Origin: Escherichia phage BF17 | Strand: one strand, 5' to 3' | Sequence record: MW822008.1 | Length of the DNA stretch: 64,000 nt | In this document: positions 4,765-26,642 of the stretch, one piece after another | Layout of the letters: the number at the start of each line of letters is the position of its first letter | Position numbering within the stretch: position 1 is the first letter of the stretch | Position numbers and translations under genes: made by a program | The notes under the pieces: generated by a model | Databases searched by the model: none | The model's input: only the letters and a program-made list of their open reading frames with translations | Told to the model about the DNA's origin: nothing

Positions 4765-5028
4765 ATGGCTGAAACATTATCACTATATGCGTTAGTACTG
4801 TTATTTGTCGGATTTCTTCCCGCACTCATTACCGCCATTCGTGTTGTTAAACATGAAGCTGCATTGATTGTATGTAGTATTGGGTCGAACATTCTATTGT
4901 ATTTCTTTTTGACAAATACTATTGTACTGTTTGCTTTCTTTATCATGATTCTCTGGGTACTTGTAATTCTCGGATTCTTCATTTGGTCATTGGTTGATCC
5001 TAAGAAAAAATCAGGAGAAGTGAAATGA
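4765..5028 (+). CDS. small membrane protein
   Basis: 87 aa, three hydrophobic segments. Confidence 0.55.
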   Translation: MAETLSLYALVLLFVGFLPALITAIRVVKHEAALIVCSIGSNILLYFFLTNTIVLFAFFIMILWVLVILGFFIWSLVDPKKKSGEVK

Positions 5029-5321
5029 AATTAATTATTGCAATGATGATGTGTTTGGCTTTCCCTGTACTGGCTACTCCTAATCTGGACTGCACACTGT
5101 TGCGTTCAGATGGTGACACACTTGAAATCAACACATATGAACTCTTTGGTCCAAGTGTAGTGGAGAATGAAACCACCTACAATTTCAAAGCTATTGACTT
5201 TGAAGGTAATGTTCCAGTACTAACTACAATGACTATTGACAAAACTACTTTACTCGGACGAATCACCACACAACGAGGTGAAAGTAAAACATTCACAGCG
5301 AAAGCTGACTGTAACTACTAA
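5025..5321 (+). CDS. small secreted protein
   Basis: 98 aa; signal-peptide-like MKLIIAMMMCLAFPVLA; overlapping stop/start. Confidence 0.6.
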   Translation: MKLIIAMMMCLAFPVLATPNLDCTLLRSDGDTLEINTYELFGPSVVENETTYNFKAIDFEGNVPVLTTMTIDKTTLLGRITTQRGESKTFTAKADCNY

Positions 5322-6985: not shown

Positions 6986-7237
6986 ATGTTTAAATATGTT
7001 TTATTTTCACTTGTATTGTTTACTGATATAGTTTATAGTACTGAATACCAGTGCTCCATTGCTAGACAGGAGTTTAGAAACGGTGAGTTCTATACCAAGT
7101 CTTACACTAGAGGATTGGTACATGACAATAATAAAACTATAGGGTTCAATGCATTTGATAACAAAGATCGATATACGTCTGGAATACTATCTGAACGTAA
7201 GTCGGATATACTAGGTATCGAGCGTGAATTCCGGTGA
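6986..7237 (+). CDS. small secreted protein
   Basis: 83 aa; signal-peptide-like N-terminus. Confidence 0.5.
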   Translation: MFKYVLFSLVLFTDIVYSTEYQCSIARQEFRNGEFYTKSYTRGLVHDNNKTIGFNAFDNKDRYTSGILSERKSDILGIEREFR

Positions 7238-7598: not shown

Positions 7599-7606
7599 AA
7601 GAAAAG

Positions 7607-7639
7607 GGTTGACTTCGGTCGGCCCTTTTTGCTATAATC
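7607..7639 (+). terminator. hairpin terminator with embedded -35 and TATAAT
   Basis: GGGTTGACTTCGGTCGGCCC TTTTTGC TATAAT. Confidence 0.6.
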
Positions 7640-7664: not shown

Positions 7665-8078
7665 ATGTTAAAAGTTATTTTCCGTTCTATCAGTTCATTA
7701 CTTCTTATGATTAGTTCAGTTTGTTATGCAAATGAAGTATCTGATTTATTTGAGAAGAATTACCCAACTGCACAAGAGATGGGTGTTTTAAAATGCAAGC
7801 TAACTTCGTACAACATCATCGGCAGTAAACTTGTACTGGAACATGAACGTAGTACACCAATCCCTCTAGTAGAAGAAGGTAGTACCTTTAGCTTCAAGTA
7901 CGGGGTGAATGTAACATCTGGTGTAATGAACAATGTTGATGCAGAGACTGGTTCAACATGGAGTACTAGCGGTAAAGATGTGTTTCATCGTATGCGTGAA
8001 AATGGTAAACTGAAGTACGTATATGAAAGTTCATTCATGAAACGTGTATTCATTATAAAAAATTGTGTACCAGCATAA
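7665..8078 (+). CDS. secreted protein
   Basis: 137 aa; signal-peptide-like MLKVIFRSISSLLLMISSVCYA. Confidence 0.6.
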   Translation: MLKVIFRSISSLLLMISSVCYANEVSDLFEKNYPTAQEMGVLKCKLTSYNIIGSKLVLEHERSTPIPLVEEGSTFSFKYGVNVTSGVMNNVDAETGSTWSTSGKDVFHRMRENGKLKYVYESSFMKRVFIIKNCVPA

Positions 8079-8374: not shown

Positions 8375-8713
8375 ATGGAACAACATTTTGAATTAATTAA
8401 TAAGGTATCATTTTATGTAGTATCGTTAATTTGGGTGTATTACATGTTTTGTTACATTATTGCATTCTTCCGATACACGACCTTGTATCAACGCATATAC
8501 TACGATGCACCAATTTCATTTTTGATGTTCAGTGCATGTACGTGGGGGATAATTGAAGCACTGGTATGTGGATATAGTACGGACGAATTAAATCTCGTAT
8601 CGGTGTTGACATTACTAACAATTGCTACTATGATAGCTACAGTTCCGATATTTTTGCTCTTTAAACTGCTTCATCGCATCGATGAGTGGCGTAATAAAAT
8701 CCCTGAAAAGTAA
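8375..8713 (+). CDS. small membrane protein, paralog family (cluster A)
   Basis: 112 aa, hydrophobic, basic tail WRNKIPEK. Confidence 0.6.
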   Translation: MEQHFELINKVSFYVVSLIWVYYMFCYIIAFFRYTTLYQRIYYDAPISFLMFSACTWGIIEALVCGYSTDELNLVSVLTLLTIATMIATVPIFLLFKLLHRIDEWRNKIPEK

Positions 8714-8716
8714 GGA

Positions 8717-9064
8717 TTGATAATGATTTTTTACACTAATGCGTTTGCTTATGCCGTTGCATCAATCTACATTGTGTACTTCTTATTTGGTGGAGTACTG
8801 TACTTCTTTAAGTACAAAACATTGTTTAACCGAATGTATCCAAATCACCCAATTGTAGTAGTACTTTTGATTATTTCTGTTGCTCACATCATTGTAGAAA
8901 CAATAATGGGTATTAGTGCAGTACATTACAGTCTAGGTACTATTGTAATTATTACTATGATCATCGCATACATTTTAGTAATGGGTTCTGGTTTATTTGG
9001 GAATGTAGCAATGAAAATGTATAATCGAATCAAAACATTACGTGATAATCTACCGGAGCGTTGA
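8717..9064 (+). CDS. small membrane protein, paralog family (cluster A)
   Basis: 115 aa, tail LRDNLPER. Confidence 0.6.
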   Translation: MIMIFYTNAFAYAVASIYIVYFLFGGVLYFFKYKTLFNRMYPNHPIVVVLLIISVAHIIVETIMGISAVHYSLGTIVIITMIIAYILVMGSGLFGNVAMKMYNRIKTLRDNLPER

Positions 9065-9065
9065 G

Positions 9066-9410
9066 ATGTATAATTTAAATTTAATATCATATATCATAAC
9101 AACACTGTTTACTTTCTATGTCTTTGTTGGTATACTCCTACTGTACTTTAAATTTTATAAACTCTTTGACCGTTTATATCCATCATTGAAACATGAATTC
9201 TTATTGGTGATGTACATCTGTTTAACGTGTATGTCTACATTTTTCACTGTATTTGATGGTATCATCGGTATTAAAGCTGAAGATCCAAATGGGAGTACAC
9301 TTGTTGCCTTTATTCTGGTAGGATTCTTCGGTACTTATATCACTTTCATTTCAACATGGTCTGTGGTTGATTATCTCATTAGATTACGAGATAAAATGCC
9401 AAATCGATAG
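9066..9410 (+). CDS. small membrane protein, paralog family (cluster A)
   Basis: ORF 9042-9410 trimmed to ATG 9066; tail LRDKMPNR. Confidence 0.55.
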   Translation: MYNLNLISYIITTLFTFYVFVGILLLYFKFYKLFDRLYPSLKHEFLLVMYICLTCMSTFFTVFDGIIGIKAEDPNGSTLVAFILVGFFGTYITFISTWSVVDYLIRLRDKMPNR

Positions 9411-9418
9411 GGGGTGCT

Positions 9419-9676
9419 ATGTTTGCATTGCGTAATAAAAATACAAAAGAGATTCTATGTATCTCAACAGTATGGGATTGTGCAGGAAGTGAAATGATTC
9501 TCGAAGAAGGTTCAGGTGATTGTGTTTATGTTGTACAGGATCGTCGCGAACTGGAATCATTACTTGACGAATTTAATGCTGGTGGAAATCCTAAAAGTAC
9601 TCAATTCCCTGAGATCAGGAATCCAGCACCACCAGGCTCTTATGAAATTCTACAACTGTGGGAGATGGATAAGTAA
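9419..9676 (+). CDS. hypothetical protein
   Basis: 85-aa ORF, GGGGG upstream. Confidence 0.5.
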   Translation: MFALRNKNTKEILCISTVWDCAGSEMILEEGSGDCVYVVQDRRELESLLDEFNAGGNPKSTQFPEIRNPAPPGSYEILQLWEMDK

Positions 9677-9936
9677 TGCGTCAAATGCACAAAGTAACCG
9701 AGCTAAACAAGCGTCTGATTAAACAATCAATGTTTGAGGATAAAGAGTCTTACTATAACTTCAAACGTGCTGTAGAGGCTGCTATCCACATTCAGAAGCT
9801 TAAAGATAGTGGATGTATTATTCTCGAAAATGGTTCTGACGTTGTTACTGATGACTTCAGTGTAGCGTTTGATGTTTCACCTGATGGTTCGCTATCAATG
9901 CCACGCTTAGGGACTGGTGACATGACTGTGTGGTAG
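9676..9936 (+). CDS. hypothetical protein
   Basis: 86-aa ORF, start overlaps upstream stop. Confidence 0.5.
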   Translation: MRQMHKVTELNKRLIKQSMFEDKESYYNFKRAVEAAIHIQKLKDSGCIILENGSDVVTDDFSVAFDVSPDGSLSMPRLGTGDMTVW

Positions 9937-10131
9937 GTTTCACTATGGGGAATGTACCAGGCACGGTGTATGTAGATGATGCTGAGTTGAAAGAAAGCTT
10001 CAAAAACTTATCGCATCTTGAACCACAATACGCACATGAAATGAATTTATTTTGAGTTGACAAACTCATTCAGTACTGTATAATGTTTATCAAGGGGATG
10101 AACTTCTCATCCCCACAATCGAGGAATTGTC

Positions 10132-10686
10132 ATGATTACTTTTAAGAAAACTGCTAACCACATCCATGAGATCTACATTAACGGTCACAAAGCTGGCCTT
10201 CTTCGTTTACTCGCCCATCATCCGAATATTACCGTATCTGATAATGAACCTAAAGATTGGCGTGTATTTTTCTTTGGAAAGTACAGTGATTTTCAAGTAT
10301 CAAACCTGAAGAACATTCGTTCAGTATGCACGTTAACTGAAATTAAAGAAAAGTTAACCAAAGCATTGAAAACTAATCCAGATAGTGTTCTTCCACCTGA
10401 TAACTTTGTAGAGAAAGGATATGCCTTAGCTCATTTCAAAGATGGTACTATTCAATCTATCAGTACTGAATATGAATATCAATGGACTGAGTACTTCACT
10501 TATGGATCGCGTAATACATTGATGGCTTCACGTAGTAAATTGGAAGAAGTACTGACTCGTATGAATGAACGCGAGCGTCAATTTTATGACAAACCAGAAA
10601 TGTGGAGTTCAACTTACATTGACCGTATTGACTATGTTATTATGACTCCAATCTTTGACACTGCTTACTATGATTCTTTGAAATAA
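10132..10686 (+). CDS. hypothetical protein
   Basis: 184-aa ORF; GAGG upstream; preceded by TTGACA...TATAAT. Confidence 0.65.
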   Translation: MITFKKTANHIHEIYINGHKAGLLRLLAHHPNITVSDNEPKDWRVFFFGKYSDFQVSNLKNIRSVCTLTEIKEKLTKALKTNPDSVLPPDNFVEKGYALAHFKDGTIQSISTEYEYQWTEYFTYGSRNTLMASRSKLEEVLTRMNERERQFYDKPEMWSSTYIDRIDYVIMTPIFDTAYYDSLK

Positions 10687-10697
10687 GGATAACTTAT

Positions 10698-10874
10698 ATG
10701 AAACTACGTACTCGTAATCGACTGATGGATGCACTGTACCATGAACAGCTTTCACTGAATGAAGTGAAGCGTCAGTTAATGTACACATATCTGTTACCCG
10801 CTCGCATTGCAAAACAACGTGCTAAAGAATTGCTGAAAGAAGCAATCGAGTACTGGGAATCTGATTCGTACTAA
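10698..10874 (+). CDS. small hypothetical protein
   Basis: 58-aa ORF not in track; AGGA upstream. Confidence 0.4.
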   Translation: MKLRTRNRLMDALYHEQLSLNEVKRQLMYTYLLPARIAKQRAKELLKEAIEYWESDSY

Positions 10875-10902
10875 TTGTCACGTTAATTAAGTGAGGCGAT
10901 AA

Positions 10903-11154
10903 ATGAAAATTTTATTAGTTCTAATACTACTAATTGTTTTACCATTTACGTTAGTATCTCCTGAACTTGCATGGAATGTGTTTGTGTACTTACTATGTAC
11001 TATTGTAGTAAATGGTATCTTGTTCTTAGTTCTATTCATAAATGGAATAGGACACGGTGGAGGATGGACCAGTACTGCTGATATTGTACATAAAACCACT
11101 ATGTCTTTATTTGTAGTGTGGAATTTATTCTGGACTTGGTTTGTGTTCTTCTAA
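10903..11154 (+). CDS. small membrane protein
   Basis: 83 aa, hydrophobic throughout; GAGG upstream. Confidence 0.55.
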   Translation: MKILLVLILLIVLPFTLVSPELAWNVFVYLLCTIVVNGILFLVLFINGIGHGGGWTSTADIVHKTTMSLFVVWNLFWTWFVFF

Positions 11155-11164
11155 TTAAAAAAAT

Positions 11165-11536
11165 ATGAATATAGATTTGAAAGGTGCAACACGAACTGTC
11201 ATACTCATTGGGGAATATGCTATCAAGATTCCAACCTTTAAAAGTTGGAAGCTATTCTTAACAGGGATGATAGCTAACCTCAATGAACGTTCGTGGATGC
11301 AGTACTCCAAGCGTAGTAATAGTGGTATCTGCCCTACGTTGTGGTCATCATGTACTGGACTAGTAACTGTACAGAAACGTTGTAAGCCAGTGCAACATAG
11401 GGGTTTATTTTGGCTGGAGTTGTGTGCTTTAGCATTGAATTCAGAGTTAAGTGCTGACTTCTTTTATTCAGATGCGAAGCCAGAAAACTTTGGGTATCTG
11501 TGTGGTAAGTTGGTTAAACTTGATTATGGAGATTAA
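11165..11536 (+). CDS. hypothetical protein
   Basis: 123-aa ORF. Confidence 0.5.
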   Translation: MNIDLKGATRTVILIGEYAIKIPTFKSWKLFLTGMIANLNERSWMQYSKRSNSGICPTLWSSCTGLVTVQKRCKPVQHRGLFWLELCALALNSELSADFFYSDAKPENFGYLCGKLVKLDYGD

Positions 11537-11537
11537 T

Positions 11538-11810
11538 ATGTACGCACTGTATAATAAAGAAAAGAAACGATTTGCTAAGGTTGAAATTTCGATTGATACA
11601 TTTGACATGTTGGAGTACTGTATTGTAACGGACTTATATGCTAACTTGTATTACGTTCTTGATGACGTATCAGTACTGCAACGATTGCTTGAGAATTCCA
11701 AAAGTCAATGCCAGGGCATCCATGATGGTTCATCTTATGAAACACCTGAGTGTTCCTACGGCTATCTGGACGGGTATGAGATTGTGAAGTTGGGTATTGT
11801 TGGATGCTGA
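11538..11810 (+). CDS. hypothetical protein
   Basis: ORF 11451-11810 trimmed to ATG 11538 after GGAG. Confidence 0.5.
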   Translation: MYALYNKEKKRFAKVEISIDTFDMLEYCIVTDLYANLYYVLDDVSVLQRLLENSKSQCQGIHDGSSYETPECSYGYLDGYEIVKLGIVGC

Positions 11811-12084
11811 AACAATGACCAATGATGAATTCATGGAATTTATAAAAAATATACAAAGTTCAAAAACTGGAGAAGAAAAAGAAACATATAAATTTAAAAG
11901 TTCAATAATACTTATGAAAATGAAATTGATTTCTCATACTTTTAATGAGAAGTATGATTTTATCTTTGTGAACAGTGACTACAATGATTTAGTTTATAAT
12001 ATAAATGTTTTGTGGGAAGAAGAACTACAAAGCAAAATACATACAGTACGAAAACCATTAAAAAATCCTTTCAAAACGGGTTGA
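11797..12084 (+). CDS. hypothetical protein
   Basis: 95-aa ORF; ends in terminator hairpin. Confidence 0.5.
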   Translation: MLDAETMTNDEFMEFIKNIQSSKTGEEKETYKFKSSIILMKMKLISHTFNEKYDFIFVNSDYNDLVYNINVLWEEELQSKIHTVRKPLKNPFKTG

Positions 12085-12110
12085 CTTCGGTCAGCCCTTT
12101 TTGCTATAAT
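12078..12110 (+). terminator. hairpin terminator with embedded -35 and TATAAT
   Basis: GGGTTGACTTCGGTCAGCCC TTTTTGC TATAAT. Confidence 0.6.
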
Positions 12111-12138
12111 CATTTCATCAAGACGAGAGGATGAATAC

Positions 12139-12654
12139 ATGACACGCATTAACTTAGTACACGTTAAAGAACTTGCTGACCAACATCTGATGGCTGAATA
12201 TCGTGAACTCCCACGTGTGTTTGGTGCTGTACAAAAACATGTTCAAGCACGTAAGCGAGTCCGTGATTTCAAAATTAACAGTACTTACCTGTTAGGTTCA
12301 GGTCATGTAACATTCTTCTACAACAAGTTATTGTACTTACAGAAGCGTCATATTGATATTGTTAACGAATGTTTGCGTCGTGGTATGAAGATTCAAAACA
12401 CTGAAGTAAACGACATTAGCGGATTCCCTGCTGAGTTTTGTAATGACTACGTACCATCGGAGTCAGAGATTAAAATGTCTCGTGAGCGTTTGATTGAGAA
12501 GATACAGATGAAGCCTATGTGGTATAAATTTACTGACGTTGAACGCCCACAGTACGTTAAAGATATGCAGGACGTAAGTGGTGATATAGAATCTAGTACT
12601 GATATGTTCGACGAAATTGAAGAACAAATCAAAGATGAAATGAATAATTATTAA
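12139..12654 (+). CDS. denV: pyrimidine-dimer DNA glycosylase / AP lyase (T4 endonuclease V family)
   Basis: MTRINL...[19 protein letters not shown]...VRDFKI...GHVTFFY closely matches T4 endonuclease V as I recall it; ~35-aa acidic C-terminal extension. Confidence 0.88.
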
Positions 12655-12660
12655 AGGAAA

Positions 12661-12693
12661 GGGTTGACTTCGGTCAGCCCTTTTTGCTATAAT
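12661..12693 (+). terminator. hairpin terminator with embedded -35 and TATAAT
   Basis: same unit as 12078. Confidence 0.6.
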
Positions 12694-12719
12694 CATTTTA
12701 TCAACTTAAGAGGTAACAC

Positions 12720-12962
12720 ATGAAACTATCTTTTATACGATTAGCAGAATTCTTCGGTACTGATATCATTACTTTACAACAAATTGCAGACAATACTTCA
12801 TTAAGTACACAAGAAGTACTTGACTTAGATGTAATTCAGTGCGATAATACGTCCATCGATTACAAAGAAGGTCTTGTCGAAAAAGATAAGATTCAGGCTA
12901 AGATTAATGGTGCTGGACGGGTTCAGTACTGGAAAGGAGTTTTAAGTAATGTTAATTTATGA
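12720..12962 (+). CDS. hypothetical protein
   Basis: 80-aa ORF, AGAGG upstream. Confidence 0.5.
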   Translation: MKLSFIRLAEFFGTDIITLQQIADNTSLSTQEVLDLDVIQCDNTSIDYKEGLVEKDKIQAKINGAGRVQYWKGVLSNVNL

Positions 12963-14364
12963 CGAGCTTGGTGTTGGATACCATTTTACCGATGTTGTGC
13001 AATTGGAGGGTGAATATGTACGCGACGCACGAGAAGACACACCACTTGATAAAATAAAAACACTTAATTCACTAATAATAAAAAATATAATACACATTGA
13101 ATTATTACAAGGATTTGTCGTTGATGGCATAGATGAGTATAATAAAAAAAGATATTCTAAAAAATTTCGACAACCAAAATGTAATTTGAAAATAGCATTT
13201 TGGTATGATGGTTTATTGTTCATTCAAGGTTATAAACAATTTCTTTCCAACTTAAGTTCAGGAAACTATTGTCCGGGTGAAAAAATATATAATTTAGAAA
13301 AAACCATTTTATCTGCAAAAAATAAACTATCCGGTGGGTGTAGTATAATAACTGGGAATGGTGAGTGGCTGGGGAGAACAAATACTAAACTTTATGCACT
13401 CTGCACGAAAACCAATAAACCTTGGGAATTCACCATCGGTACACAATATTCTCAGAATTGTCCTGACTGTAAAAAAAGCAAAAAAACTAATAAAGACTTA
13501 GATGTGTTTTTTGAACAACAATGTATAAAATTAAATGCAAAATTTATTGGTATTTTCATGTATAATGGTGTAGATAATAGTATTGTCAAATCGGTATGTA
13601 ATTGTTGTGGTAATGAACGTATGGATTATGGAATAACGTTTCGTGCGGGCAGTAGAAAAAGTTTATGCCCACTTGAATCAAGCAGAGTAGAAAAAATAAA
13701 AAAATCCCAATACTTACAAAATGAAGTTTTGGAAGAAAAAATAAAAACTGCAATGAAAATCCATAATATAAGATTTGATGATTCTAACAAATTTGAACCT
13801 GAGAAATACGCAAATGTCAAAACTACTATTATAAATTATATTGATTCGAGTGGAACCCCTGGTAGTACATGTCTTTCAAATTTGATTTATAATACAGACA
13901 AACGAAGTATTGGTTCAAAAAACATGACTAATGGTGGTGAGTTGTATACAAATTCATTTGGAAATATGTACAAACTAGGTCACACGACAAAAACAAGTCG
14001 TAGGATATACGAACAAAATTTATCCTTCTCCAAAAAAAATATATTATGGAAAAATGAACTAATTTTAAAGTTTCCTGGTGAAAATGGGTATGGTCGAGCG
14101 ATTTATTTTGAAAAAACAATTTTAGATTATGTAAATAATATAATTGATTGGGTGAAAAACGTTCAAAAAACACCAATATTCGCCCGTGGTTGTGTTGACG
14201 AAGGTGATGGACATACTGAAACATTTTTAAAGATATATGAATCATATTTTAGATATAAATTGAATGAATTGTACTTGACATATAAAGATGAATGGGATAT
14301 AATTATTTTCAAAGATGAAAAGAATTTTATTTCTAATACAAGAGATACTAAAAATGACCAATGA
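12949..14364 (+). CDS. Cys-rich hypothetical protein in AT-rich insert
   Basis: 471 aa; Lys/Asn/Ile-rich; CPDCKK and CNCCGNE motifs. Confidence 0.6.
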   Translation: MLIYDELGVGYHFTDVVQLEGEYVRDAREDTPLDKIKTLNSLIIKNIIHIELLQGFVVDGIDEYNKKRYSKKFRQPKCNLKIAFWYDGLLFIQGYKQFLSNLSSGNYCPGEKIYNLEKTILSAKNKLSGGCSIITGNGEWLGRTNTKLYALCTKTNKPWEFTIGTQYSQNCPDCKKSKKTNKDLDVFFEQQCIKLNAKFIGIFMYNGVDNSIVKSVCNCCGNERMDYGITFRAGSRKSLCPLESSRVEKIKKSQYLQNEVLEEKIKTAMKIHNIRFDDSNKFEPEKYANVKTTIINYIDSSGTPGSTCLSNLIYNTDKRSIGSKNMTNGGELYTNSFGNMYKLGHTTKTSRRIYEQNLSFSKKNILWKNELILKFPGENGYGRAIYFEKTILDYVNNIIDWVKNVQKTPIFARGCVDEGDGHTETFLKIYESYFRYKLNELYLTYKDEWDIIIFKDEKNFISNTRDTKNDQ

Positions 14365-15412
14365 ACAAATTATTGATATTTTAAACAAACTTGGATATGA
14401 TGAAATAACAATTAATGTGGATAAATGTACATATGATGTATTTCATCCTAAAAGAAAAATAATTTATACTGGTATGGATTTAAATAAGATCAACTTTAAT
14501 ACAAAAGCAATAAAATTTCCACCGTTGGATTATAACACAATAAAATTAAGTTGTGAGAATATTTTCAAAGATAGTGAATGTAAATTTTGTTATTTGGAAT
14601 ATAATGAAAACAAACCAAATGACACAAAAGTTTTTTATTGTGCACCTAAAAGAAAAAAACCAACCAGTATATATTATAGACATTTGGTGAGTGGTGGTAT
14701 TCGTATTAATGTTGAATGGGATATTGAAGACATCTATGATAATGTCTTGATTAAAATAAAAGATATGGATGGTTTTGATATTGATCATGTTGAATATAAT
14801 GAAAAAGAAACTTCAAAAACTATAATTCATTTTAAACACCCAAATAGATTATTAACAGTTAAAAATGAATTTAGATATATAATGAGAGATAATTGGTCAT
14901 TAAAAGAACCGCAGATTTCATTAGACGAAATAAATGAGATTGGTAAGAAATTTTCAAAAGAACATCCAAAATATAAGTATCTTGGATGTAAAAGATTCAA
15001 AGGTTCAAAATCGATATTATCGTTTGTTAAAATCGATAATGGAAAAATTTGGAATCCATCATATGAATCAATAGTTTATAGTAATATTAACAGTGATGTT
15101 GGTGGATATATTGCAAATGATATAAAAAATTTATATATATTTAAAACTGATTCATTTGTTGGAACATTTATATGCAATGAAACAAAATTTAACTTTCATA
15201 AAAATGAAAGGGAGTTTTGGTTGGATGATGGGGAGATTGAGATAATTGGACAATTCAATGAACGATATTCTTTTTTAAAAGGTATTGTAGATACAGTTAA
15301 TAGTGAAATAGAAATAGATCATGATTTAGATATTGTTGGATATACGTGTATTAGGAAAATACATAATATTGAATATATACAACAACGTTGTTATGATTTA
15401 TTCAATTTATAA
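14354..15412 (+). CDS. hypothetical protein in AT-rich insert
   Basis: ORF 14315-15412 trimmed to ATG 14354; ~353 aa. Confidence 0.6.
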   Translation: MTNEQIIDILNKLGYDEITINVDKCTYDVFHPKRKIIYTGMDLNKINFNTKAIKFPPLDYNTIKLSCENIFKDSECKFCYLEYNENKPNDTKVFYCAPKRKKPTSIYYRHLVSGGIRINVEWDIEDIYDNVLIKIKDMDGFDIDHVEYNEKETSKTIIHFKHPNRLLTVKNEFRYIMRDNWSLKEPQISLDEINEIGKKFSKEHPKYKYLGCKRFKGSKSILSFVKIDNGKIWNPSYESIVYSNINSDVGGYIANDIKNLYIFKTDSFVGTFICNETKFNFHKNEREFWLDDGEIEIIGQFNERYSFLKGIVDTVNSEIEIDHDLDIVGYTCIRKIHNIEYIQQRCYDLFNL

Positions 15413-15420
15413 CAAAAAAA

Positions 15421-15453
15421 GGGTTGACTTCGGTCAGCCCTTTTTGCTATAAT
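15421..15453 (+). terminator. hairpin terminator with embedded -35 and TATAAT
   Basis: same unit as 12078. Confidence 0.6.
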
Positions 15454-15481
15454 TATTTCATCAACTGATGAGGATAACGAA

Positions 15482-16252
15482 ATGACCAGAGAAGCACGTA
15501 GCATTCAAATTCAGAAAAACTTCAACTCCATGATGGTTGCTCTTGAGTGTTTGCTCGACGATAACAGTACTGTAAAAAGTATGGTTGTCAGCGGTGCACC
15601 TGGTGTTGGTAAGACTTACACCCTGTCACAACGCCTCCAGAAAGCTCATGACGCAGCAGAATGGAACGTAGCCACTATCAGTGGTAAAATGACTACTCTT
15701 GCTCTGTACGAAGTTCTGTACAAGAATCGTCATAGCACCAACGTATTAGTACTGGATGATATGGACAGCATCTTTGATTCAGAAGACGGTATGAACCTGC
15801 TCAAAGCAGTACTGGACAGCGGTAAACGTACTGTGTCTTACATGACTAGCTCTAAGTACTTAACTACCAACGGTATCCCTAACAGCTTTGATTTTAACGG
15901 TCGTATCGTATTCATTACTAACAAAGATTTAGCACTGAATGCTAAAGCTAAAACCAAAATGTCTGCTCACTATGCTGCTCTTATGTCTCGCTCTGTGTAT
16001 GTTGACTTACAGATCCAGACTAAAAGCGATATCATGATTCACATTGAAAACGTAATGAACAAGACCAATATCCTGTCAACTAAAGGTGTTAATAGTAATG
16101 GTAGCAAAGCAATCCTGAATTGGATGCTGAAACATGAAGATGCACTTCGTGCTCCTTCACTGCGTATGCCTCTGTTGATTTCAGCAGTATACAACAACAA
16201 CCCGTATGATTGGGAAGAGCAGTGCGAAAACTTGTTCCTTGAGAAAATTTAA
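15482..16252 (+). CDS. P-loop NTPase
   Basis: Walker A GAPGVGKT and Walker B-like VLVLDDMD; GAGGA upstream. Confidence 0.7.
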   Translation: MTREARSIQIQKNFNSMMVALECLLDDNSTVKSMVVSGAPGVGKTYTLSQRLQKAHDAAEWNVATISGKMTTLALYEVLYKNRHSTNVLVLDDMDSIFDSEDGMNLLKAVLDSGKRTVSYMTSSKYLTTNGIPNSFDFNGRIVFITNKDLALNAKAKTKMSAHYAALMSRSVYVDLQIQTKSDIMIHIENVMNKTNILSTKGVNSNGSKAILNWMLKHEDALRAPSLRMPLLISAVYNNNPYDWEEQCENLFLEKI

Positions 16253-16267
16253 TTACATGTATTGACA

Positions 16268-16300
16268 GTACTACCATAGTGTAGTACTATAACTTAATAT
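16268..16300 (+). promoter_or_regulatory. sigma70-like promoter for the membrane-protein operon
   Basis: TTGACA, 17 nt, TACTAT upstream of 16320. Confidence 0.5.
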
Positions 16301-16319
16301 TCACCACCGGAGATACGAT

Positions 16320-16658
16320 ATGCTTGAGTTTTTTAATTCAGATACAATGCTTAGTATTACTTTGATTTATCTGTTTGGTTTTTTCTTTTATCATGCACTA
16401 GTTGTAGTACTATGGTATTTTAAAAAGAAAATCGTTTTCAAACTGTATCCTGATGGAAACATTTCACTACTTCTTTTCACTATTATCCAAGGTATGTTTG
16501 CAATTGTTGGTCTTATCGCACACTTAATTTATTGTGCTAATCCACAGTTGAACTCAATATCACAATATATTGTATTCCTTGGATTACTAATTTGGGTGCT
16601 GATATACTTGTTTAATCTCATCATCAATGGTAGAGCAAAAATTCGTGGGGACTTCTAA
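16320..16658 (+). CDS. small membrane protein, paralog family (cluster B)
   Basis: 112 aa, hydrophobic, basic C-terminal tail. Confidence 0.6.
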   Translation: MLEFFNSDTMLSITLIYLFGFFFYHALVVVLWYFKKKIVFKLYPDGNISLLLFTIIQGMFAIVGLIAHLIYCANPQLNSISQYIVFLGLLIWVLIYLFNLIINGRAKIRGDF

Positions 16659-17005
16659 TGTTTGAATCTTATCTTGAGTTTTTAAAGAGTAGTTCTGTTG
16701 CACATTCAATTGCAGGGATTATTCTAACAGGTTATGTAACATTTTGGGTGGTTATGTTTCTAGGATGGTATTTTAAACGACAATTCTATAAGCGTAATGG
16801 TGAAGATTTTATGAATTCTGTTATTAATCAATCGTTGTTTGCATCAACATTGATAGCATGTATTGTAGCAACACTCACAGGAAAGGTACTGCCAGCATTC
16901 TCCGCAGTTTACGGTACATTGGGTATGATATGTGTAGTTTTTTACTTGACCATTAAACTTTGTTGTGTTATGATTGACCTTCGAAACAAGATACCGGAGG
17001 AATGA
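16658..17005 (+). CDS. small membrane protein, paralog family (cluster B)
   Basis: 115 aa; tail LRNKIPEE; overlapping stop/start. Confidence 0.6.
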   Translation: MFESYLEFLKSSSVAHSIAGIILTGYVTFWVVMFLGWYFKRQFYKRNGEDFMNSVINQSLFASTLIACIVATLTGKVLPAFSAVYGTLGMICVVFYLTIKLCCVMIDLRNKIPEE

Positions 17006-17340
17006 TGGAATATTTTTTACACTTACTGCCGTGGTATATGAAAGTTAGTACTATGTACTATATTCTTAGTGCTGGATTCTACTTTCTGATGTGGTTCTTC
17101 AAACGACCAATTTCAGTATTCATCTCTGATAACATGCTGCAATTAAAATTACACGCATGGTTTTTTATGGCGATGTTTATGCCTATTATTCACTACTCAA
17201 TGATTAGTAGAGGGTTCCGTTCCAATGGTGAACCAATTATATTAGTATTCTATTGGGGTTCAACTATTGCATATGTAAGTTTGTTGTTGATCCCAGCCGT
17301 TCATAAATTACGTGCTAAAGTTCCTGATGCGAGGTACTAA
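17002..17340 (+). CDS. small membrane protein, paralog family (cluster B)
   Basis: 112 aa; tail LRAKVPDARY. Confidence 0.6.
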   Translation: MMEYFLHLLPWYMKVSTMYYILSAGFYFLMWFFKRPISVFISDNMLQLKLHAWFFMAMFMPIIHYSMISRGFRSNGEPIILVFYWGSTIAYVSLLLIPAVHKLRAKVPDARY

Positions 17341-17654
17341 TGGATATCGTAACATTGATTTACACGCTTTATTCATTCTATTTTATTATGTGTTGGGTTG
17401 GATTTTTATTTGTATTGAAGATGTTTGATTATGTTGAAAAACAGATAAAAGAATTTTGTATTCCTTTTATTGGGTCAACCATAATTAGTATTACTTGTTT
17501 GTATTATTTGGTATGTGATCCACCTGTTAATACAGCAATGATTGACTTCATGTTATTACCAACAACAGTTATTTTTTTATGTAGTCTGATGCCACCGATT
17601 AGTCGTGGGCTAACCGAATTTAGACGCAATCAAAAGCGTAAACGAGGGATGTGA
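17340..17654 (+). CDS. small membrane protein, paralog family (cluster B)
   Basis: 104 aa; basic tail. Confidence 0.6.
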   Translation: MDIVTLIYTLYSFYFIMCWVGFLFVLKMFDYVEKQIKEFCIPFIGSTIISITCLYYLVCDPPVNTAMIDFMLLPTTVIFLCSLMPPISRGLTEFRRNQKRKRGM

Positions 17655-18022
17655 TGGAAATTGCACTTATTATATTAACTGCTATGTTGTTTATTAGTAC
17701 AATTGTTATTATTGGCAAGTTCTTCTGTGTATCCTTCTTGGAAACCGTATACGATGAAATTGCTGATGATTATGAATTACATGCGGGATTTTTTACTACG
17801 TATTGGATTAGTTTATTACTACTTATCACTGTATGGATTTTACATATATTCAAATGGGGTATGGTAGATGGTGATCCAGTACTGGCAATTATCTGTGTAG
17901 TGTTTGGTCTACTCGGTGGTGCTGTCCATAATCTGATGGTAATTTGGCAAACCGTACAATATGTATTAGTTCCACATTTTCAGAGAATGCACCAAAGCAT
18001 CAAATACCGCAAACGAGGATAA
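17651..18022 (+). CDS. small membrane protein, paralog family (cluster B)
   Basis: 123 aa; basic tail. Confidence 0.6.
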   Translation: MMEIALIILTAMLFISTIVIIGKFFCVSFLETVYDEIADDYELHAGFFTTYWISLLLLITVWILHIFKWGMVDGDPVLAIICVVFGLLGGAVHNLMVIWQTVQYVLVPHFQRMHQSIKYRKRG

Positions 18023-18023
18023 C

Positions 18024-18386
18024 ATGAATAATATTGAATTATCTTTTATTGGTCAATTAATGGTAATGGCGTATACATTTATCTTCTCACTGAATGCATT
18101 CGTGTGCATTGGGAAGTACTTCCATAAGCGACCATTATCAAATATATATGATGTAATACAAAGGAGATATAGTCCAGCATATACTGTGTTGAGTACAGCA
18201 TTCAATTTTGGTTTTATTCTAATGCTGGTTGCATTATTAACATCGAGTTCGAATTTTATAACATTTGGTATTATGGTATGTTCACTAACACTGTGTGTGG
18301 TTATTCTCTGTGCATCAGTTGAGTTGATGGCGTGGATGTATAATAAGATTTCCGAAATCCATGAGCGTTTAGGTAAGAGGAACTAA
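18024..18386 (+). CDS. small membrane protein, paralog family (cluster B)
   Basis: 120 aa. Confidence 0.6.
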   Translation: MNNIELSFIGQLMVMAYTFIFSLNAFVCIGKYFHKRPLSNIYDVIQRRYSPAYTVLSTAFNFGFILMLVALLTSSSNFITFGIMVCSLTLCVVILCASVELMAWMYNKISEIHERLGKRN

Positions 18387-18387
18387 A

Positions 18388-18759
18388 ATGAGTTATCGTG
18401 AAATATTTTCGATCATTACTATTATTGTGTTTAGTTTAGGTTCTTTGATTTGGTTATTGTATTACTTCTGTGTAACCCCAGTATATAATATGCTAAATTC
18501 AGTTCGCTCTGATGTTGGTATTGTTTCTTTTATTATCTTCATGGCATATTATATGCTAAGTATCACAGGTTTGGTTTTGGTTGTTATCTTTGACCTTGGA
18601 CCGAATCAAGATGGTATGGAGATGTGGGAATTGATAACGATGTTTGCATGTATGATACCTGCATTTGGTGTATGTGCTGGTGTATTTTATGGGTTGTGTA
18701 AAGGTGTAAACTACTTAAAAAATATCCACAATACTATTCGTAAAAAACGTATGTTGTAA
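18388..18759 (+). CDS. small membrane protein, paralog family (cluster B)
   Basis: 123 aa; tail IRKKRML. Confidence 0.6.
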   Translation: MSYREIFSIITIIVFSLGSLIWLLYYFCVTPVYNMLNSVRSDVGIVSFIIFMAYYMLSITGLVLVVIFDLGPNQDGMEMWELITMFACMIPAFGVCAGVFYGLCKGVNYLKNIHNTIRKKRML

Positions 18760-18766
18760 TAAAAAA

Positions 18767-18789
18767 TCCAGTACTATAATAGTACTGGA
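18767..18789. terminator. bidirectional hairpin between convergent genes
   Basis: TCCAGTACTATAATAGTACTGGA between plus-strand stop 18759 and minus-strand stop 18796. Confidence 0.55.
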
Positions 18790-18795
18790 TTAATT

Positions 18796-19920
18796 TTAAT
18801 TATCTAAGCCACCAATTACACTGAACAGTGTGGTAACGTCTGAACTATTATCTATGTAAGTTCTTCTACCAACATAATATAGTTGTCCTTTTGCTTGAAT
18901 AAAAGTTACGGTCCCTGTATTGAATGTTATAATATCATTGTATGTAATGTCAGGTGGTAGTGCTGCTGATAACGCAGTAACTTTACTTAATGCAGCACTA
19001 GTACTACCATTTATACCAGCAGCAATACTACCAGTACCATAGAACTTATTATCTTTACCAATGAATACGTTGGCTGATGCTTGTGTAGCTGATGTTATTG
19101 CCTTACCAATTTGGAATGCGGTTCCTATGGTGTATGGTGTGCTCCTGGCTGCGTCTATGCTTTGTGTATATCCATCCCCTAGCTGACCATTAACTTTGTC
19201 ACCACATGAGTATAAAGTACCATTGAGGCTGTATATGATCCCACGGTTAGAGAAGCTAACAGCTTCTGCATTAGTCCATACTGGAGCGGTGTATGAGTTT
19301 ACACGACTAGCAGTAGTTCCTAGTCCTAGTATACCATATGTGTTATCACCACATCCAAACCATTGTCCAGTACTGTTTTGATAGAACACTGAACGTTCTG
19401 TTGATTCCATGCGTACAGCATCCACAGCACCACTTTTAACGAACGAAGTGGATGAGGATGTAGTACCAGTACCCAATGCACCATAAGTGTTTGTACCAAT
19501 CGCATAGATTGATCCTAGTGGTGTCATCACACGTATACAGTTATATCCCAATTGAACTTTACATTCAAATAGGTTGTCCCATATTTCAGGAACAGCAGAA
19601 AATAAATTTGTAATTTCGAACCATGATGTTGTCGAACCAATTAATCCTATACTGCTTTTGTTTCCTAAAATGAAAACAGTTTTGTCCTTCTTAATTATCC
19701 ATGATGATAGGAAACCTATCTCACAGCTATGAACATTTGATTCTATTTGGGTAATATAATACTTAACTGTGTTATCACCCATGAATGCCGCAGCACCGGA
19801 TGCAAAAAGGTTTCCAGTTTGTTTATTTAAAATGTAGTTATTGTTTCCATATACACTAACATCATAAGAACTTTCTTGTTTTTCGTTCCCATAATCAAAT
19901 AACAATACGAAAGGTAACAT
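18796..19920 (-). CDS. array member 1: RCC1-like repeat protein
   Basis: 374 aa; N-term MLPFVLLFDYGN; NGQLGDG and YGILGLG repeats; Gly/Thr/Ser/Asn-rich. Confidence 0.75.
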   Translation of the reverse strand: MLPFVLLFDYGNEKQESSYDVSVYGNNNYILNKQTGNLFASGAAAFMGDNTVKYYITQIESNVHSCEIGFLSSWIIKKDKTVFILGNKSSIGLIGSTTSWFEITNLFSAVPEIWDNLFECKVQLGYNCIRVMTPLGSIYAIGTNTYGALGTGTTSSSTSFVKSGAVDAVRMESTERSVFYQNSTGQWFGCGDNTYGILGLGTTASRVNSYTAPVWTNAEAVSFSNRGIIYSLNGTLYSCGDKVNGQLGDGYTQSIDAARSTPYTIGTAFQIGKAITSATQASANVFIGKDNKFYGTGSIAAGINGSTSAALSKVTALSAALPPDITYNDIITFNTGTVTFIQAKGQLYYVGRRTYIDNSSDVTTLFSVIGGLDN

Positions 19921-19997
19921 GATAAAATCTCCTTGTGTTATACTTTATTTAATCATTTTATAATGTACAATTTTACAGCGATTTAATTGAGGTACTC

Positions 19998-20648
19998 ATG
20001 AATAAAAGAAGTAAGTTCTATCAAGAATATTTCACTAAACATAAACGATTCACAAAAAAATACTTTACATCATCCCACCGACCAGTTGCAAGTTACAAAC
20101 GTCCTAATACTAACTATCTTGCTGGTGGCAAGTTTAGTGCAAAGTTCGAATTACTTATGCGTGAAAAGAATATCAAGATGCATTACGCAGAGACGAGAAA
20201 AAACTCATCAATTATTTGCTCTGATTTTCTTGAGTACGGTTGCTTAACTTATAAATTCAATGATGTATATTTGTATATTGATGTTGATTGTAACAGTACT
20301 CTTATGTTTGAGATTTCAATTCACCCAAATCACAACCGTTATATAAACATTAACTTGATTGATAAAGTACTGATTGGTATATCTAGTACTGATGGTGGTG
20401 GATTTGAATTTATTGCTTCAAAATATGATGAAGATTTCGTACTTTACCCAGTACTTGATGATGTGAAAGATATTCTCAATTCATTAAAAGGAAGTCAATA
20501 CAAATTATCTGAAGAACAGCTATTTCAGTACTCACTTATTCATGATGATATCGAGATATACTTAGAGTGTGCGAGAATCTTGGAGTATCTTTATAATGAA
20601 CTAACAACAACTGGTAAAGTGACTGCATTCACATTATATAATATGTAA
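19998..20648 (+). CDS. hypothetical protein, paralog of 40123-40782
   Basis: 216 aa; plus-strand gene inside the minus-strand array; shares CNST and LSEE[QD]LF[QM]YS with 40123-40782. Confidence 0.65.
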   Translation: MNKRSKFYQEYFTKHKRFTKKYFTSSHRPVASYKRPNTNYLAGGKFSAKFELLMREKNIKMHYAETRKNSSIICSDFLEYGCLTYKFNDVYLYIDVDCNSTLMFEISIHPNHNRYININLIDKVLIGISSTDGGGFEFIASKYDEDFVLYPVLDDVKDILNSLKGSQYKLSEEQLFQYSLIHDDIEIYLECARILEYLYNELTTTGKVTAFTLYNM

Positions 20649-20654
20649 AAGAAA

Positions 20655-20673
20655 AGCCAGTACATAGTACTGG
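20655..20673. terminator. bidirectional hairpin
   Basis: GCCAGTACATAGTACTGGC between convergent 19998-20648 and 20681-21817. Confidence 0.55.
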
Positions 20674-20680
20674 CATTATA

Positions 20681-21817
20681 TTAAACTGGTGGAGAATTAT
20701 ATGGCTCAAATTTATAAGTTGTCGTAGCAGTACCAGCAATGGCGTTGTTAGCTAGTATGTACATAGTCCTGTAGTCGATTACCACTACAGTAATACTACC
20801 ACCAAAAGCATAGTCTGTTATGTTATTAGTGTTGAATGGTAAATTAGATGAACTGGTCCATGTATTAGCTGTTGTGCTATTTGTACCATTGGAATAACCT
20901 ACACTAGATGCACCAGTTGTCCATAAGTTTCCATCATTGAACAAGGAGACATGGTTAGTTGTATATGATTTATTAGGTATAGAACTATCAATTGGTGTAT
21001 TCCAAACTTTAGTAACCCATGTTGTAACTGCTGTATTATTAGTAACGCCATTACCTAATGAACCATTTATTGGTATACCTCTTATATAAGAAGTGTTAGT
21101 ACTAGGGTCAACATATCCAAATGTATATGTATCAAATGCAAATTGAAAACAATCAGAACTCGGTAATGTGTACAGTAATGTATATGAAGACGTGTTTATT
21201 GATGAATTTGTACCGTTCACACCTTGGTATAAAATACCACTAGCCAATATTTGATTATTATTTTTTGTTATAGTGTTCATTGATGGATATGTTTTCACAT
21301 CACGCACATCATTAGTCACATATGTTTGTGTTGATAATGCAACGTTACTACCATTACCTATAACCCCTGTATTTGCACCACTCCCATAAAGTGAACCATC
21401 ATTCAAAAGAACCATTGTAACATTACCATTTCCCGTAATTGTTTTAATATTACTAACATCCACCGCAGCAAATACAGTTGATGTTAAATCAGTGAAACGT
21501 GTATAATGTGATGTTGTGCCATTGATTGGTGTCGCAAAACCAGAATACAAAATTCTATTTTCTTTGGTAATAAGGAATGTGCCAGTAACACCATTTGAAT
21601 GGATATCAACAATATTATCGCCCATTAATACCCAATCACTTACGAATGTTGTTGTACCAGTACCCAACCCATATGTCGTATTGTATCCACGTCCATACAC
21701 TCTACCATCACTGAGTAATGTTACCACACATTGACCACCACCACCAAGTATAACTTTTTGTATAGTACTCTTTACTTTTATATTCCCGTACTTAACCATT
21801 CTTGCAAAAGGTAACAT
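20681..21817 (-). CDS. array member 2: RCC1-like repeat protein
   Basis: 378 aa; N-term MLPFARMVKYGN; 14 nt downstream of member 3, so probably co-transcribed. Confidence 0.75.
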   Translation of the reverse strand: MLPFARMVKYGNIKVKSTIQKVILGGGGQCVVTLLSDGRVYGRGYNTTYGLGTGTTTFVSDWVLMGDNIVDIHSNGVTGTFLITKENRILYSGFATPINGTTSHYTRFTDLTSTVFAAVDVSNIKTITGNGNVTMVLLNDGSLYGSGANTGVIGNGSNVALSTQTYVTNDVRDVKTYPSMNTITKNNNQILASGILYQGVNGTNSSINTSSYTLLYTLPSSDCFQFAFDTYTFGYVDPSTNTSYIRGIPINGSLGNGVTNNTAVTTWVTKVWNTPIDSSIPNKSYTTNHVSLFNDGNLWTTGASSVGYSNGTNSTTANTWTSSSNLPFNTNNITDYAFGGSITVVVIDYRTMYILANNAIAGTATTTYKFEPYNSPPV

Positions 21818-21831
21818 TCTTTTTCTCCTTG

Positions 21832-22980: not shown

Positions 22981-23025
22981 AATTCCCTCCTTTATTCATT
23001 ATACTATATTTAATCAAAAAGAAAA

Positions 23026-23044
23026 GCCAGCACTCTGTACTGGC
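23026..23044 (-). terminator. inter-cassette hairpin with T-run
   Basis: GCCAGCACTCTGTACTGGC, then TATAAT and AAGGAGG of the next gene. Confidence 0.55.
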
Positions 23045-23050
23045 ATAATA

Positions 23051-24202: not shown

Positions 24203-24247
24203 ATTTCCTCCTTTATTCATTATACTATATTTAATATAAAAAGAAAA

Positions 24248-24266
24248 GCCAGTATCAAGTACTGGC
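24248..24266 (-). terminator. inter-cassette hairpin with T-run
   Basis: minus strand reads GCCAGTACTTGATACTGGC TTTTCTTTTT, then TATAAT, AAGGAGG, ATG. Confidence 0.6.
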
Positions 24267-24279
24267 ATAGTATTAAGGT

Positions 24280-25410: not shown

Positions 25411-25454
25411 AATTCCTCCTTTATTCATTATACTATATTTAATCAAAAATAAAA

Positions 25455-25473
25455 GCCAGTATCAAGTACTGGC
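25455..25473 (-). terminator. inter-cassette hairpin
   Basis: GCCAGTATCAAGTACTGGC on plus strand. Confidence 0.6.
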
Positions 25474-25487
25474 ATAGTTTTATAGTA

Positions 25488-26597: not shown

Positions 26598-26642
26598 ATT
26601 TCCTCCTTTATTCATTATACTATATTTAATACAAAAAGAAAA

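Follow-up and report, generated by a model that had tools for sequence, protein, structure and literature searches.

Characterised early small inner-membrane proteins of phage T4, such as Imm, act on superinfecting phage. Imm is ~83 aa long, has two transmembrane (TM) helices and is encoded by a single-copy gene. Class I holins of the lambda S105 type are ~105 aa proteins with three TM helices, an N-out/C-in orientation and a basic C-terminal tail. RaK2-like jumbo phages encode small proteins that genome records label as hypothetical proteins or assign to separate families, and PHROGs likewise keeps them as separate unknown families (19285, 19454, 19046, 27396, 33258, 26405 and 27618). In the literature and sequence records, we found none that treats these genes as one multigene family, studies them or assigns them a function.

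Here we analyze ten such genes in a 64,000-nt stretch of the Escherichia phage BF17 genome (MW822008.1), referred to as the window. The phage is an Asteriusvirus (a 121Q/PBECO4-like E. coli jumbo phage), and its closest relative is fEgEco12.

Gene content and organization

The window encodes ten proteins of 104-123 aa, and all of the genes listed in a preliminary description of this DNA, three at 8375-9410 and seven at 16320-18759, are present as open reading frames (ORFs).

8375-8713, plus strand: m1, 112 aa, three-TM family member (phrog_19285)
8723-9064, plus strand: m2, 113 aa, family member (phrog_19285); ATG favoured over TTG 8717 of the longest ORF
9066-9410, plus strand: m3, 114 aa, family member; ATG favoured over GTG 9042 of the longest ORF
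16320-16658, plus strand: m4, 112 aa, family member (phrog_19454)
16658-17005, plus strand: m5, 115 aa, family member (phrog_19046); modelled by AF2 as three long helices
17002-17340, plus strand: m6, 112 aa, family member (phrog_27396)
17340-17654, plus strand: m7, 104 aa, the most divergent of the ten (phrog_33258)
17654-18022, plus strand: m8, 122 aa, family member (phrog_26405); starts at ATG, the longest ORF at GTG 17651
18024-18386, plus strand: m9, 120 aa, family member
18388-18759, plus strand: m10, 123 aa, family member (phrog_27618)

For m2, m3 and m8, the fEgEco12 annotation uses the same ATG starts. Cluster 1 (m1-m3) lies 7 kb upstream of cluster 2 (m4-m10) and is separate from the NTPase-linked array described below. 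Gaps at the cluster 2 junctions are -1, -4, -1, -1, +1 and +1 nt, with the sequences TAATG, ATGA, TAATG and TGATG followed by two 1-nt spacers; those of cluster 1 are +9 and +1 nt. The overlap of starts and stops described earlier therefore holds for the first four junctions of cluster 2 (-1 to -4 nt) but not for cluster 1, which has no overlaps. Shine-Dalgarno motifs at the junctions sit within the last codons of the preceding gene. Given this placement and the junctions of -4 to +1 nt, the ten genes, which are tightly packed, are probably translationally coupled.

The ten genes form one diverged family

Links detectable by BLASTP are limited to m1-m2-m3 and m4-m5. Orthologue profiles compared with hhalign join all ten: m1-m6 (group A) match m8-m10 (group B) at 93% probability and m7 at 85%, and group B matches m7 at 95%. 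Each match spans 97-102 columns, and m1 against m2 reaches 98%. Paralogy, as originally claimed, is thus borne out by alignment, with profile-profile probabilities of 85-95% against at most 3.4% for reversed-sequence controls. A family HMM recovers exactly these ten ORFs in the window (next-best ORF, E = 0.04). These comparisons show that the genes make up a single diverged family of predicted inner-membrane proteins of ~110 aa, expanded to ten copies. Their dN/dS values lie between 0.08 and 0.48 apart from a single 0.84, obtained where divergence is very low; all being below 1, they show that m1-m10 are genuine genes under purifying selection.

Each of the ten proteins has exactly three hydrophobic segments on the Kyte-Doolittle scale, as do nearly all of the 106 family members recovered in total, in line with the multi-helix membrane proteins first proposed. 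The basic C-terminal tails LRNKIPEE, LRDNLPER and IRKKRML had also been quoted correctly. Lysine and arginine, summed over the ten proteins, number 4 at the N-terminus, 29 in loop 1, 4 in loop 2 and 45 in the C-terminal tail. Because positive charge is concentrated in loop 1 and the tail, the distribution indicates an N-out/C-in topology, and the TMHMM notes that accompany the Klebsiella phage Muenster record point the same way. All ten window proteins combine a length of ~100-130 aa with three hydrophobic helices and this charge pattern.

Two positions are near-invariant, and all ten window proteins have both. One is a Phe where helix 1 reaches the cytoplasm (87/88 sequences; F39 in m5), the other an Arg or His in the C-terminal tail (R in 58/88, H in 30/88; R109 in m5). 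They belong to juxtamembrane motifs that face the cytoplasm: [W/K][F/Y]F[K/C] follows helix 1 and [L/I/F][R/H]x[K/N/R][I/L][P/K/R] follows helix 3. Variability is greatest in helices 2 and 3. The periplasmic loop was considered as the hypervariable part and rejected, as it is no more variable than the remainder of the protein.

Distribution of the family

An exhaustive search of 1.84 billion protein representatives returned only 49 clusters, all of 89-130 aa, and every cluster with a named source is from an Asteriusvirus phage. All 106 members found by the iterated HMM come from 14 RaK2-like loci; four control loci yielded none. These searches place the family in RaK2-like jumbo phages only. 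A tblastn search with the Erwinia phage family member gave only a self-match. Copy number per Asteriusvirus genome is 8 to 11 and varies through duplications.

Comparison of m1-m10 with Pfam, NCBIfam and PADLOC gave noise-level matches only, and the family profile, searched against PDB sequences, likewise gave nothing beyond noise. Resemblance to Mrp/Mnh antiporter subunit G was dismissed, as the scores stay at noise level (m1, 13.6 bits, cut-off 107; m8, 8.8 bits, cut-off 273) and Pfam gives no match. The phi92 homologues noted in the ph0011 record (Phi92_gp233, Phi92_gp231) are an annotation artefact; the phi92 gene sizes are wrong and the family HMM finds none. Elsewhere in the window (6986-7237), the label "lytic conversion lipoprotein" carried by fEgEco12 g556 is unsupported by Pfam or PHROGs.

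An NrdC.10-like NTPase adjoins the array

Cluster 2 is preceded by a conserved neighbour.

15482-16252, plus strand: P-loop NTPase, 256 aa, homologue of T4-type NrdC.10 (phrog_1250), upstream of the array

The window NTPase is 38-41% identical to T4 NrdC.10 over ~95% of its length, and the RB3 coding sequence under the match carries the note nrdC.10. RaK2-like versions lack the N-terminal ~75 residues of the T4 protein and align to phrog_1250 positions 77-326. That the T4 extension is a membrane anchor replaced by the small membrane proteins was rejected, as the extension is soluble. A gene of 257-260 aa inside the Mimasvirus and Eneladusvirus arrays was likewise rejected as a second NTPase. 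An array lies directly downstream of the NTPase for m4-m10 and in 13 other loci, but not for m1-m3, and the arrangement is found in different RaK2-like genera. With the NTPase as query, IMG/VR yielded 121Q and RaK2 only.

The main rival to the role we favour below is that the paralogues are distinct subunits of a hetero-oligomeric inner-membrane complex, built early and possibly docking the co-transcribed NTPase through the cytoplasmic motifs. This is rather unlikely in our judgement. Paralogues are kept one-to-one between Asteriusvirus and the Klebsiella Alcyoneusvirus, with nearly unchanged order, a pattern expected of non-redundant subunits no less than of an arms-race battery. Array size, however, varies from ~5 genes (Munch, Yersinia phage, CBB) to 10 (Hallingskeid) with lineage-specific duplicates, and the separate cluster 1 has 1 to 4 copies. 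Divergence within the array is also mosaic: against ph0011, m9 and m10 are ~60% identical and m7 91%. The NTPase, moreover, occurs without the family, which is not found downstream of it in RB3 (T4-like), Vibrio phage BX-1 or Pseudomonas phage Deifobo. Less probable still is the specific version in which the 7-10 retained paralogues form a non-redundant complex that only RaK2-like jumbo phages possess and that the NTPase energises or organises, with the variable helices defining incompatibility or exclusion types.

Transcription signals and the case of lysis proteins

Both clusters are headed by a composite transcription element.

7606-7638, plus strand: 33-bp composite element, a GC-rich hairpin and T-run (terminator-like) containing the -35 TTGACT, then the extended -10 TGCTATAAT
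15421-15453, plus strand: identical copy of this terminator/promoter element (33 bp), preceding the NTPase gene and cluster 2
16262-16290, plus strand: sigma-70-like promoter TTGACA-17-TACTAT in the 67-nt gap preceding m4
18765-18791, no strand assigned: hairpin with a 12-bp stem between the convergent m10 and first RCC1-like gene

The element at 7606-7638 begins the transcription unit carrying cluster 1 and scores 11/12 in a promoter scan. The window holds four copies of this host-type sigma-70 consensus element at ≤1 mismatch, where chance predicts 0, and two of them head the clusters. JNE01, ph0011, Hallingskeid and Munch also carry the conserved element ahead of their NTPase genes. The promoter before m4 is conserved in JNE01, ph0011 and UE-S1 despite diverged coding flanks. 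Judging from this promoter and the sigma-70 consensus copies, host RNA polymerase probably transcribes both arrays early in infection. The 18765-18791 hairpin is likely a bidirectional terminator closing the array's transcription unit.

This context bears on whether the proteins could be holins, antiholins or other lysis-timing proteins. Their size of ~105-125 aa, three TM helices, N-out/C-in orientation and charged C-terminal tail match the class I architecture, but the sigma-70 consensus promoters suggest early, not late, expression. Neither an endolysin nor a spanin is annotated in the surrounding loci (fEgEco12 and Muenster annotations). The endolysin homologue is 121Q gp532, ~300 genes away from the array (121Q genes 224-231), and the predicted endolysin of these phages has its own N-terminal TM domain (PMC5259590). 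No Pfam or NCBIfam holin model matches, and 8 to 11 copies per Asteriusvirus genome are unlike any lysis cassette. We thus regard a lysis function as very improbable.

Divergence between related phages

Family members in the window are 25-65% identical to their JNE01 or A4 orthologues, whereas flanking genes (10132-12962) are 93-100% identical. The m10 protein is 39% identical to its same-genus orthologue and 41% to that of a Klebsiella phage. The NTPase of Erwinia phage Hallingskeid is 87% identical to the JNE01 type, but none of this phage's array proteins exceeds 33% identity to a family member from the window, JNE01 or A4. As dN/dS is <1 throughout, the divergence is best described as old alleles and recombination, not demonstrable positive selection.

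A second rival reading is that each paralogue inhibits or hijacks a different host inner-membrane protein (such as a membrane-bound abortive-infection or defence effector, a transporter or a protease), serving anti-defence or host takeover rather than exclusion between phages. The arrays do differ most between phages of different hosts, even where the adjacent NTPase is conserved as in Hallingskeid, and variability peaking in helices 2 and 3 fits intramembrane recognition. The apparent early expression and the hyper-divergent cassettes are evidence that this explanation shares with exclusion. Against it, the proteins have no similarity to known anti-defence proteins or PADLOC models, and three deeply different cassettes exist among phages that all infect E. 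coli. Action on host targets seems rather unlikely to us.

A tentative role in envelope-level conflict

We infer, with low confidence, that the family functions in envelope-level conflict, such as superinfection exclusion or immunity. This role is compatible with the sigma-70-type promoters, the early-region context and the high allelic divergence beside near-identical flanks. Both arrays would be transcribed early by host RNA polymerase with coupled translation, and the proteins would enter the host's inner membrane shortly after infection begins. There they could act where phage-host or phage-phage conflict occurs, keeping competing phages from delivering their genomes or damaging the envelope. 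The conserved cytoplasm-facing motifs after helices 1 and 3 may give all members a shared activity or partner, and specificity may be set, for each paralogue and each allele, by helices 2 and 3, which are more variable. Points against exclusion are a periplasmic loop that is not hypervariable, dN/dS below 1, the one-to-one retention of paralogues, the lack of homology to characterised exclusion proteins and the unsupported lipoprotein label of the nearby fEgEco12 g556 counterpart.

In jumbo phages, genes of unknown function make up a large share of the genome; here, 8-11 of them per Asteriusvirus genome collapse into one family. It is lineage-specific, under purifying selection, probably early and located at one of the most variable positions in otherwise near-identical genomes, a pattern that likely marks a determinant of phage-phage or phage-host compatibility. 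This bears on which Asteriusvirus phages to pick or combine in therapy cocktails, where mutual exclusion might be a concern. Should the proteins instead form a complex with the widespread NrdC.10-type NTPase, this would be the first functional context for that orphan T4-type protein.

Comparison with known systems

The family resembles T4 Imm as a small, putatively early phage inner-membrane protein, a functional analogy without sequence match: Pfam and NCBIfam searches give m1-m10 no sequence link to Imm or other characterised exclusion proteins, and none of the ten matches the Imm model PF14373 at E ≤ 1. A different window ORF (2740-2976) has a weak, sub-threshold Imm match. From class I holins the family differs in its early promoter context, remote endolysin and, here, ten diverged copies. 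In T4-like phages, NrdC.10 is not followed by this membrane family. The closest counterparts are the "putative membrane proteins" of RaK2-like phages, which share the size, three TM helices, N-out/C-in orientation and place downstream of an NrdC.10-like NTPase. By HMM, the same family includes Klebsiella phage Muenster CPT_Muenster_554-561, the RaK2 array, Pectobacterium phage CBB gp434-436 and Erwinia phage Hallingskeid CDS0085-0095.

Gene layout and topology

Between 8 and 19 kb the window is 88-99% identical by megablast, in a mosaic pattern, to members of the genus Asteriusvirus, which are Escherichia coli jumbo phages (121Q, PBECO4, phAPEC6, CMSTMSU and others). The ten small membrane protein genes that the preliminary description placed at 8375-18759 are all present, three in cluster 1 (m1-m3, 8375-9410) and seven in cluster 2 (m4-m10, 16320-18759). 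They belong to a block of short + strand genes abutting a long convergent - strand array of RCC1-like genes. ATG starts at 8723, 9066 and 17654 match the annotation of the Asteriusvirus phage fEgEco12, whose g574 is 100% identical to m5, and were preferred over upstream TTG/GTG codons. Overlapping starts and stops, claimed for both clusters, hold for cluster 2, where genes overlap or lie 1 nt apart (gaps of -1, -4, -1, -1, +1 and +1), but not for cluster 1, which has 9-nt and 1-nt spacers. The Shine-Dalgarno motif of every downstream gene sits inside the final codons of the gene before it (as in CCG GAG GAA TGA, which encodes ...PEE*), placing C-terminal tail codons under dual constraint. A K-[I/L]-P motif is kept where the Shine-Dalgarno differs and is therefore a protein-level feature too.

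The several hydrophobic helices proposed earlier resolve to exactly three hydrophobic segments in 10/10 proteins. Summed lysines and arginines number 4 at the N-terminus, 29 in loop 1, 4 in loop 2 and 45 in the C-tail, so the positive-inside rule predicts an N-out/C-in topology. The TMHMM result on record for most homologues in Klebsiella phage Muenster is the same. An AF2 model of m5 has three long helices (pLDDT 69).

One family from ten divergent paralogues

By BLASTP, the only links are among m1-m2-m3 (E 1e-9 to 1e-11) and between m4 and m5 (4e-4). Orthologues from six further Asteriusvirus loci gave ten syntenic orthogroups, whose profiles hhalign joined into group A (m1-m6) and group B (m8-m10), leaving m7 on its own. 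Once sequences from Klebsiella and Erwinia phages were included, the profiles linked A to B at 93% (E 3e-7), A to m7 at 85% and B to m7 at 95% (E 4e-8), each alignment spanning 97-102 columns; reversed sequences that preserved composition and the three-helix pattern reached at most 3.4%. A phenylalanine at the cytoplasmic end of helix 1 occurs in 87 of 88 aligned sequences, and an Arg/His in the tail in all 88 (R 58, H 30). The profile links and these near-invariant residues bear out the suggested paralogy, and m1-m10 therefore form one family. The family HMM found no eleventh member in the window.

PHROGs divides the ten among seven unknown-function families with weak full-length cross-matches, and the family has no match in Pfam, NCBIfam, PADLOC or PDB. 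A word-indexed search of 5.8e9 proteins gave 24 matches, and an exhaustive HMMER search of 1.84e9 representatives (E<=1e-3) gave 49 clusters, all of 89-130 aa and aligned end to end. Clusters sampled from these came from phage contigs of ~350 kb or from short metagenomic ones; those members that carry a name are all from Asteriusvirus phages. With m4, tblastn also picks up Klebsiella RaK2-like phages (27.6% identity, full length). An iterated HMM recovered 106 members across 14 loci and none in four control loci: 8-11 per locus in Asteriusvirus, 8 in both RaK2 and Muenster, and 10 in Erwinia phage Hallingskeid; Salmonella Munch, Yersinia fHe-Yen9-03, Xanthomonas XbC2 and Pectobacterium CBB contribute no fewer than 2-3 each. 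The arrays of these four also contain more membrane ORFs of the same size that score below threshold.

Conserved order and cassette-like divergence

Every complete Asteriusvirus locus that was read contains all seven cluster 2 orthogroups; an intact m5 is missing from the fragmented SD-1_S14 assembly. Muenster and RaK2 carry one-to-one counterparts in nearly the same order (m5, m5, m4, m6, m7, m8, m10, plus one).

The window shares 93-100% identity with the Asteriusvirus phages JNE01 or A4 across the genes at 10132-12962, but only 25-65% across m1-m10. The m10 protein is 39% identical to same-genus orthologues and 41% to its Klebsiella phage orthologue. Divergence is mosaic even within the array: against Asteriusvirus ph0011, identity is 91% for m7 but ~60% for m9 and m10. 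Conservation inside orthogroups is highest in helix 1 and loop 1 (65-67% identity) and lowest in helix 2 (53%) and helix 3 (48%); the periplasmic loop does not stand out as variable. In 28 of 29 comparisons dN/dS was 0.08-0.48 (the remaining one 0.84 at dS 0.04; dS range 0.04 to >2), similar to or somewhat higher than in neighbouring genes (0.03-0.29), and these comparisons do not demonstrate positive selection. With dN/dS below 1 and mosaic divergence, m1-m10 are thus functional genes, and the phages carry them as allelic cassettes that are old and recombine.

The NTPase neighbour

Directly upstream of cluster 2 lies a gene for a 256-aa P-loop NTPase (15482-16252, +), sharing 38-41% identity with a T4-type protein that carries the annotation nrdC.10. 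Detected family members in RaK2-like loci all lie downstream of this NTPase, except Asteriusvirus cluster 1 and one additional member each in Munch and XbC2, a few kb upstream of it. T4-like, Vibrio and Pseudomonas phages have the NTPase without the membrane family. Asteriusvirus has two NTPase alleles, the window type being ~58% identical to the JNE01/ph0011 type. Identity between the JNE01 type and the Hallingskeid NTPase reaches 87%, which suggests exchange across host genera at this locus; despite this, no family member in the window, JNE01 or A4 is more than 33% identical to a Hallingskeid array protein.

It is rather unlikely that the paralogues form a hetero-oligomeric complex. Long-term retention of every paralogue in fixed order, translational coupling of array genes, conserved motifs on the cytoplasmic face and the NTPase as a constant neighbour would fit such an assembly, but variation in array size (about 5-10) and mosaicism inside the array speak against a strict machine.

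A conserved gene of ~257-260 aa stands mid-array in Eneladusvirus and Mimasvirus (L015 7132-7911, L016 8402-9184, L017 7477-8247); considered as an NTPase paralogue, it proved not to be one. After the array, Klebsiella, Yersinia and Pectobacterium relatives carry a further envelope-directed gene of ~200 aa (L008 11104-11691, L015 9729-10352, L017 9747-10370), labelled a (possible) lipoprotein in Klebsiella and Yersinia records and carrying Pfam DUF1190 in Klebsiella and Pectobacterium. Near its position the window has a different ORF (216 aa, 19998-20648).

Promoters and terminators

A 33-bp element, GGGTTGACTTCGGTCAGCCCTTTTTGCTATAAT, occurs in four near-identical copies in the window (0 expected by chance):

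7606-7638, + strand, heads the unit that includes cluster 1
12078-12110, + strand, near-identical copy
12661-12693, + strand, near-identical copy
15421-15453, + strand, heads the NTPase and cluster 2 unit

It comprises an intrinsic-terminator-like hairpin and T-run with an embedded sigma-70 -35 box, then an extended -10. The copy upstream of the NTPase is also found in other phages and is kept in Erwinia and Salmonella relatives; the element looks like standard punctuation for early transcription units of the RaK2-like clade. Another promoter, TTGACA-17-TACTAT at 16262, lies ahead of m4 and has been kept in JNE01, ph0011 and UE-S1. A hairpin with a 12-bp stem (18765-18791) probably terminates the cluster 2 unit. 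From these signals we infer that both clusters would be transcribed early by host RNA polymerase. A literature search found no transcriptome for the RaK2-like clade.

Promoters of early type also weigh against a holin-type role, which we consider highly improbable and which only the architecture of the proteins fits. Lysis genes are not annotated nearby, and the Muenster record calls these genes membrane proteins only. The predicted endolysin of the clade has its own N-terminal TM domain, and the 121Q endolysin homologue, gp532, is distant from the array genes (224 onwards) (PMC5259590).

Other genes in the window

The convergent array (18796-38020, -) consists of about 16 tandem paralogous genes for RCC1-repeat beta-propeller proteins of ~370-430 aa, labelled 'DNA condensation' or 'chromosome condensation regulator' in public records. 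These too are hyper-divergent across Asteriusvirus, sharing 23-32% identity with JNE01 and A4.

Between denV and the NTPase, 12720-15412 (+) holds ORFs of 80, 471 and 365 aa without a Pfam match, at the window's lowest GC (0.30). In fEgEco12 these are absent and denV adjoins the NTPase gene; JNE01 and A4 have a homologue of the 80-aa ORF, then a large ORF of similar size. The segment is possibly a mobile insertion.

A 78-aa membrane ORF (2740-2976, +) matches Pfam Imm_superinfect only weakly, below the gathering score (E 0.014; 15.7 bits vs 27.9), and may be a T4 Imm-like gene separate from the ten-member family. Signal-peptide-like N-termini on small + strand ORFs (429-779, 2445-2669, 5025-5321, 6986-7237 and 7665-8078) make the early region appear rich in exported as well as membrane proteins. 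Pfam and PHROGs do not reproduce the 'lytic conversion lipoprotein' label of the fEgEco12 homologue of 6986-7237. Further small multi-helix membrane ORFs (+) at 49-432 (127 aa), 4765-5028 (87 aa) and 10903-11154 (83 aa) are unmatched by the family HMM; the first also ends in a basic tail and belongs to phrog_31707, of unknown function.

Function and comparison with known phage proteins

Public records list single genes as hypothetical or 'putative membrane' proteins, and a literature search found no paper treating the family. Its union, signature residues, and synteny with cassette-like variation appear to be new descriptive findings. Small phage membrane proteins made early are a familiar biological kind, and our preferred reading is that the ten would act at a conflict interface. 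Pointing that way are their predicted early presence in the inner membrane, a copy number that varies, and hyper-divergent cassettes beside flanks that are nearly identical. By analogy with Imm and other characterised early membrane proteins of T4, the role we tentatively favour is superinfection exclusion or immunity; as a close, if doubtful, alternative they might instead inhibit proteins of the host membrane or of its defences.
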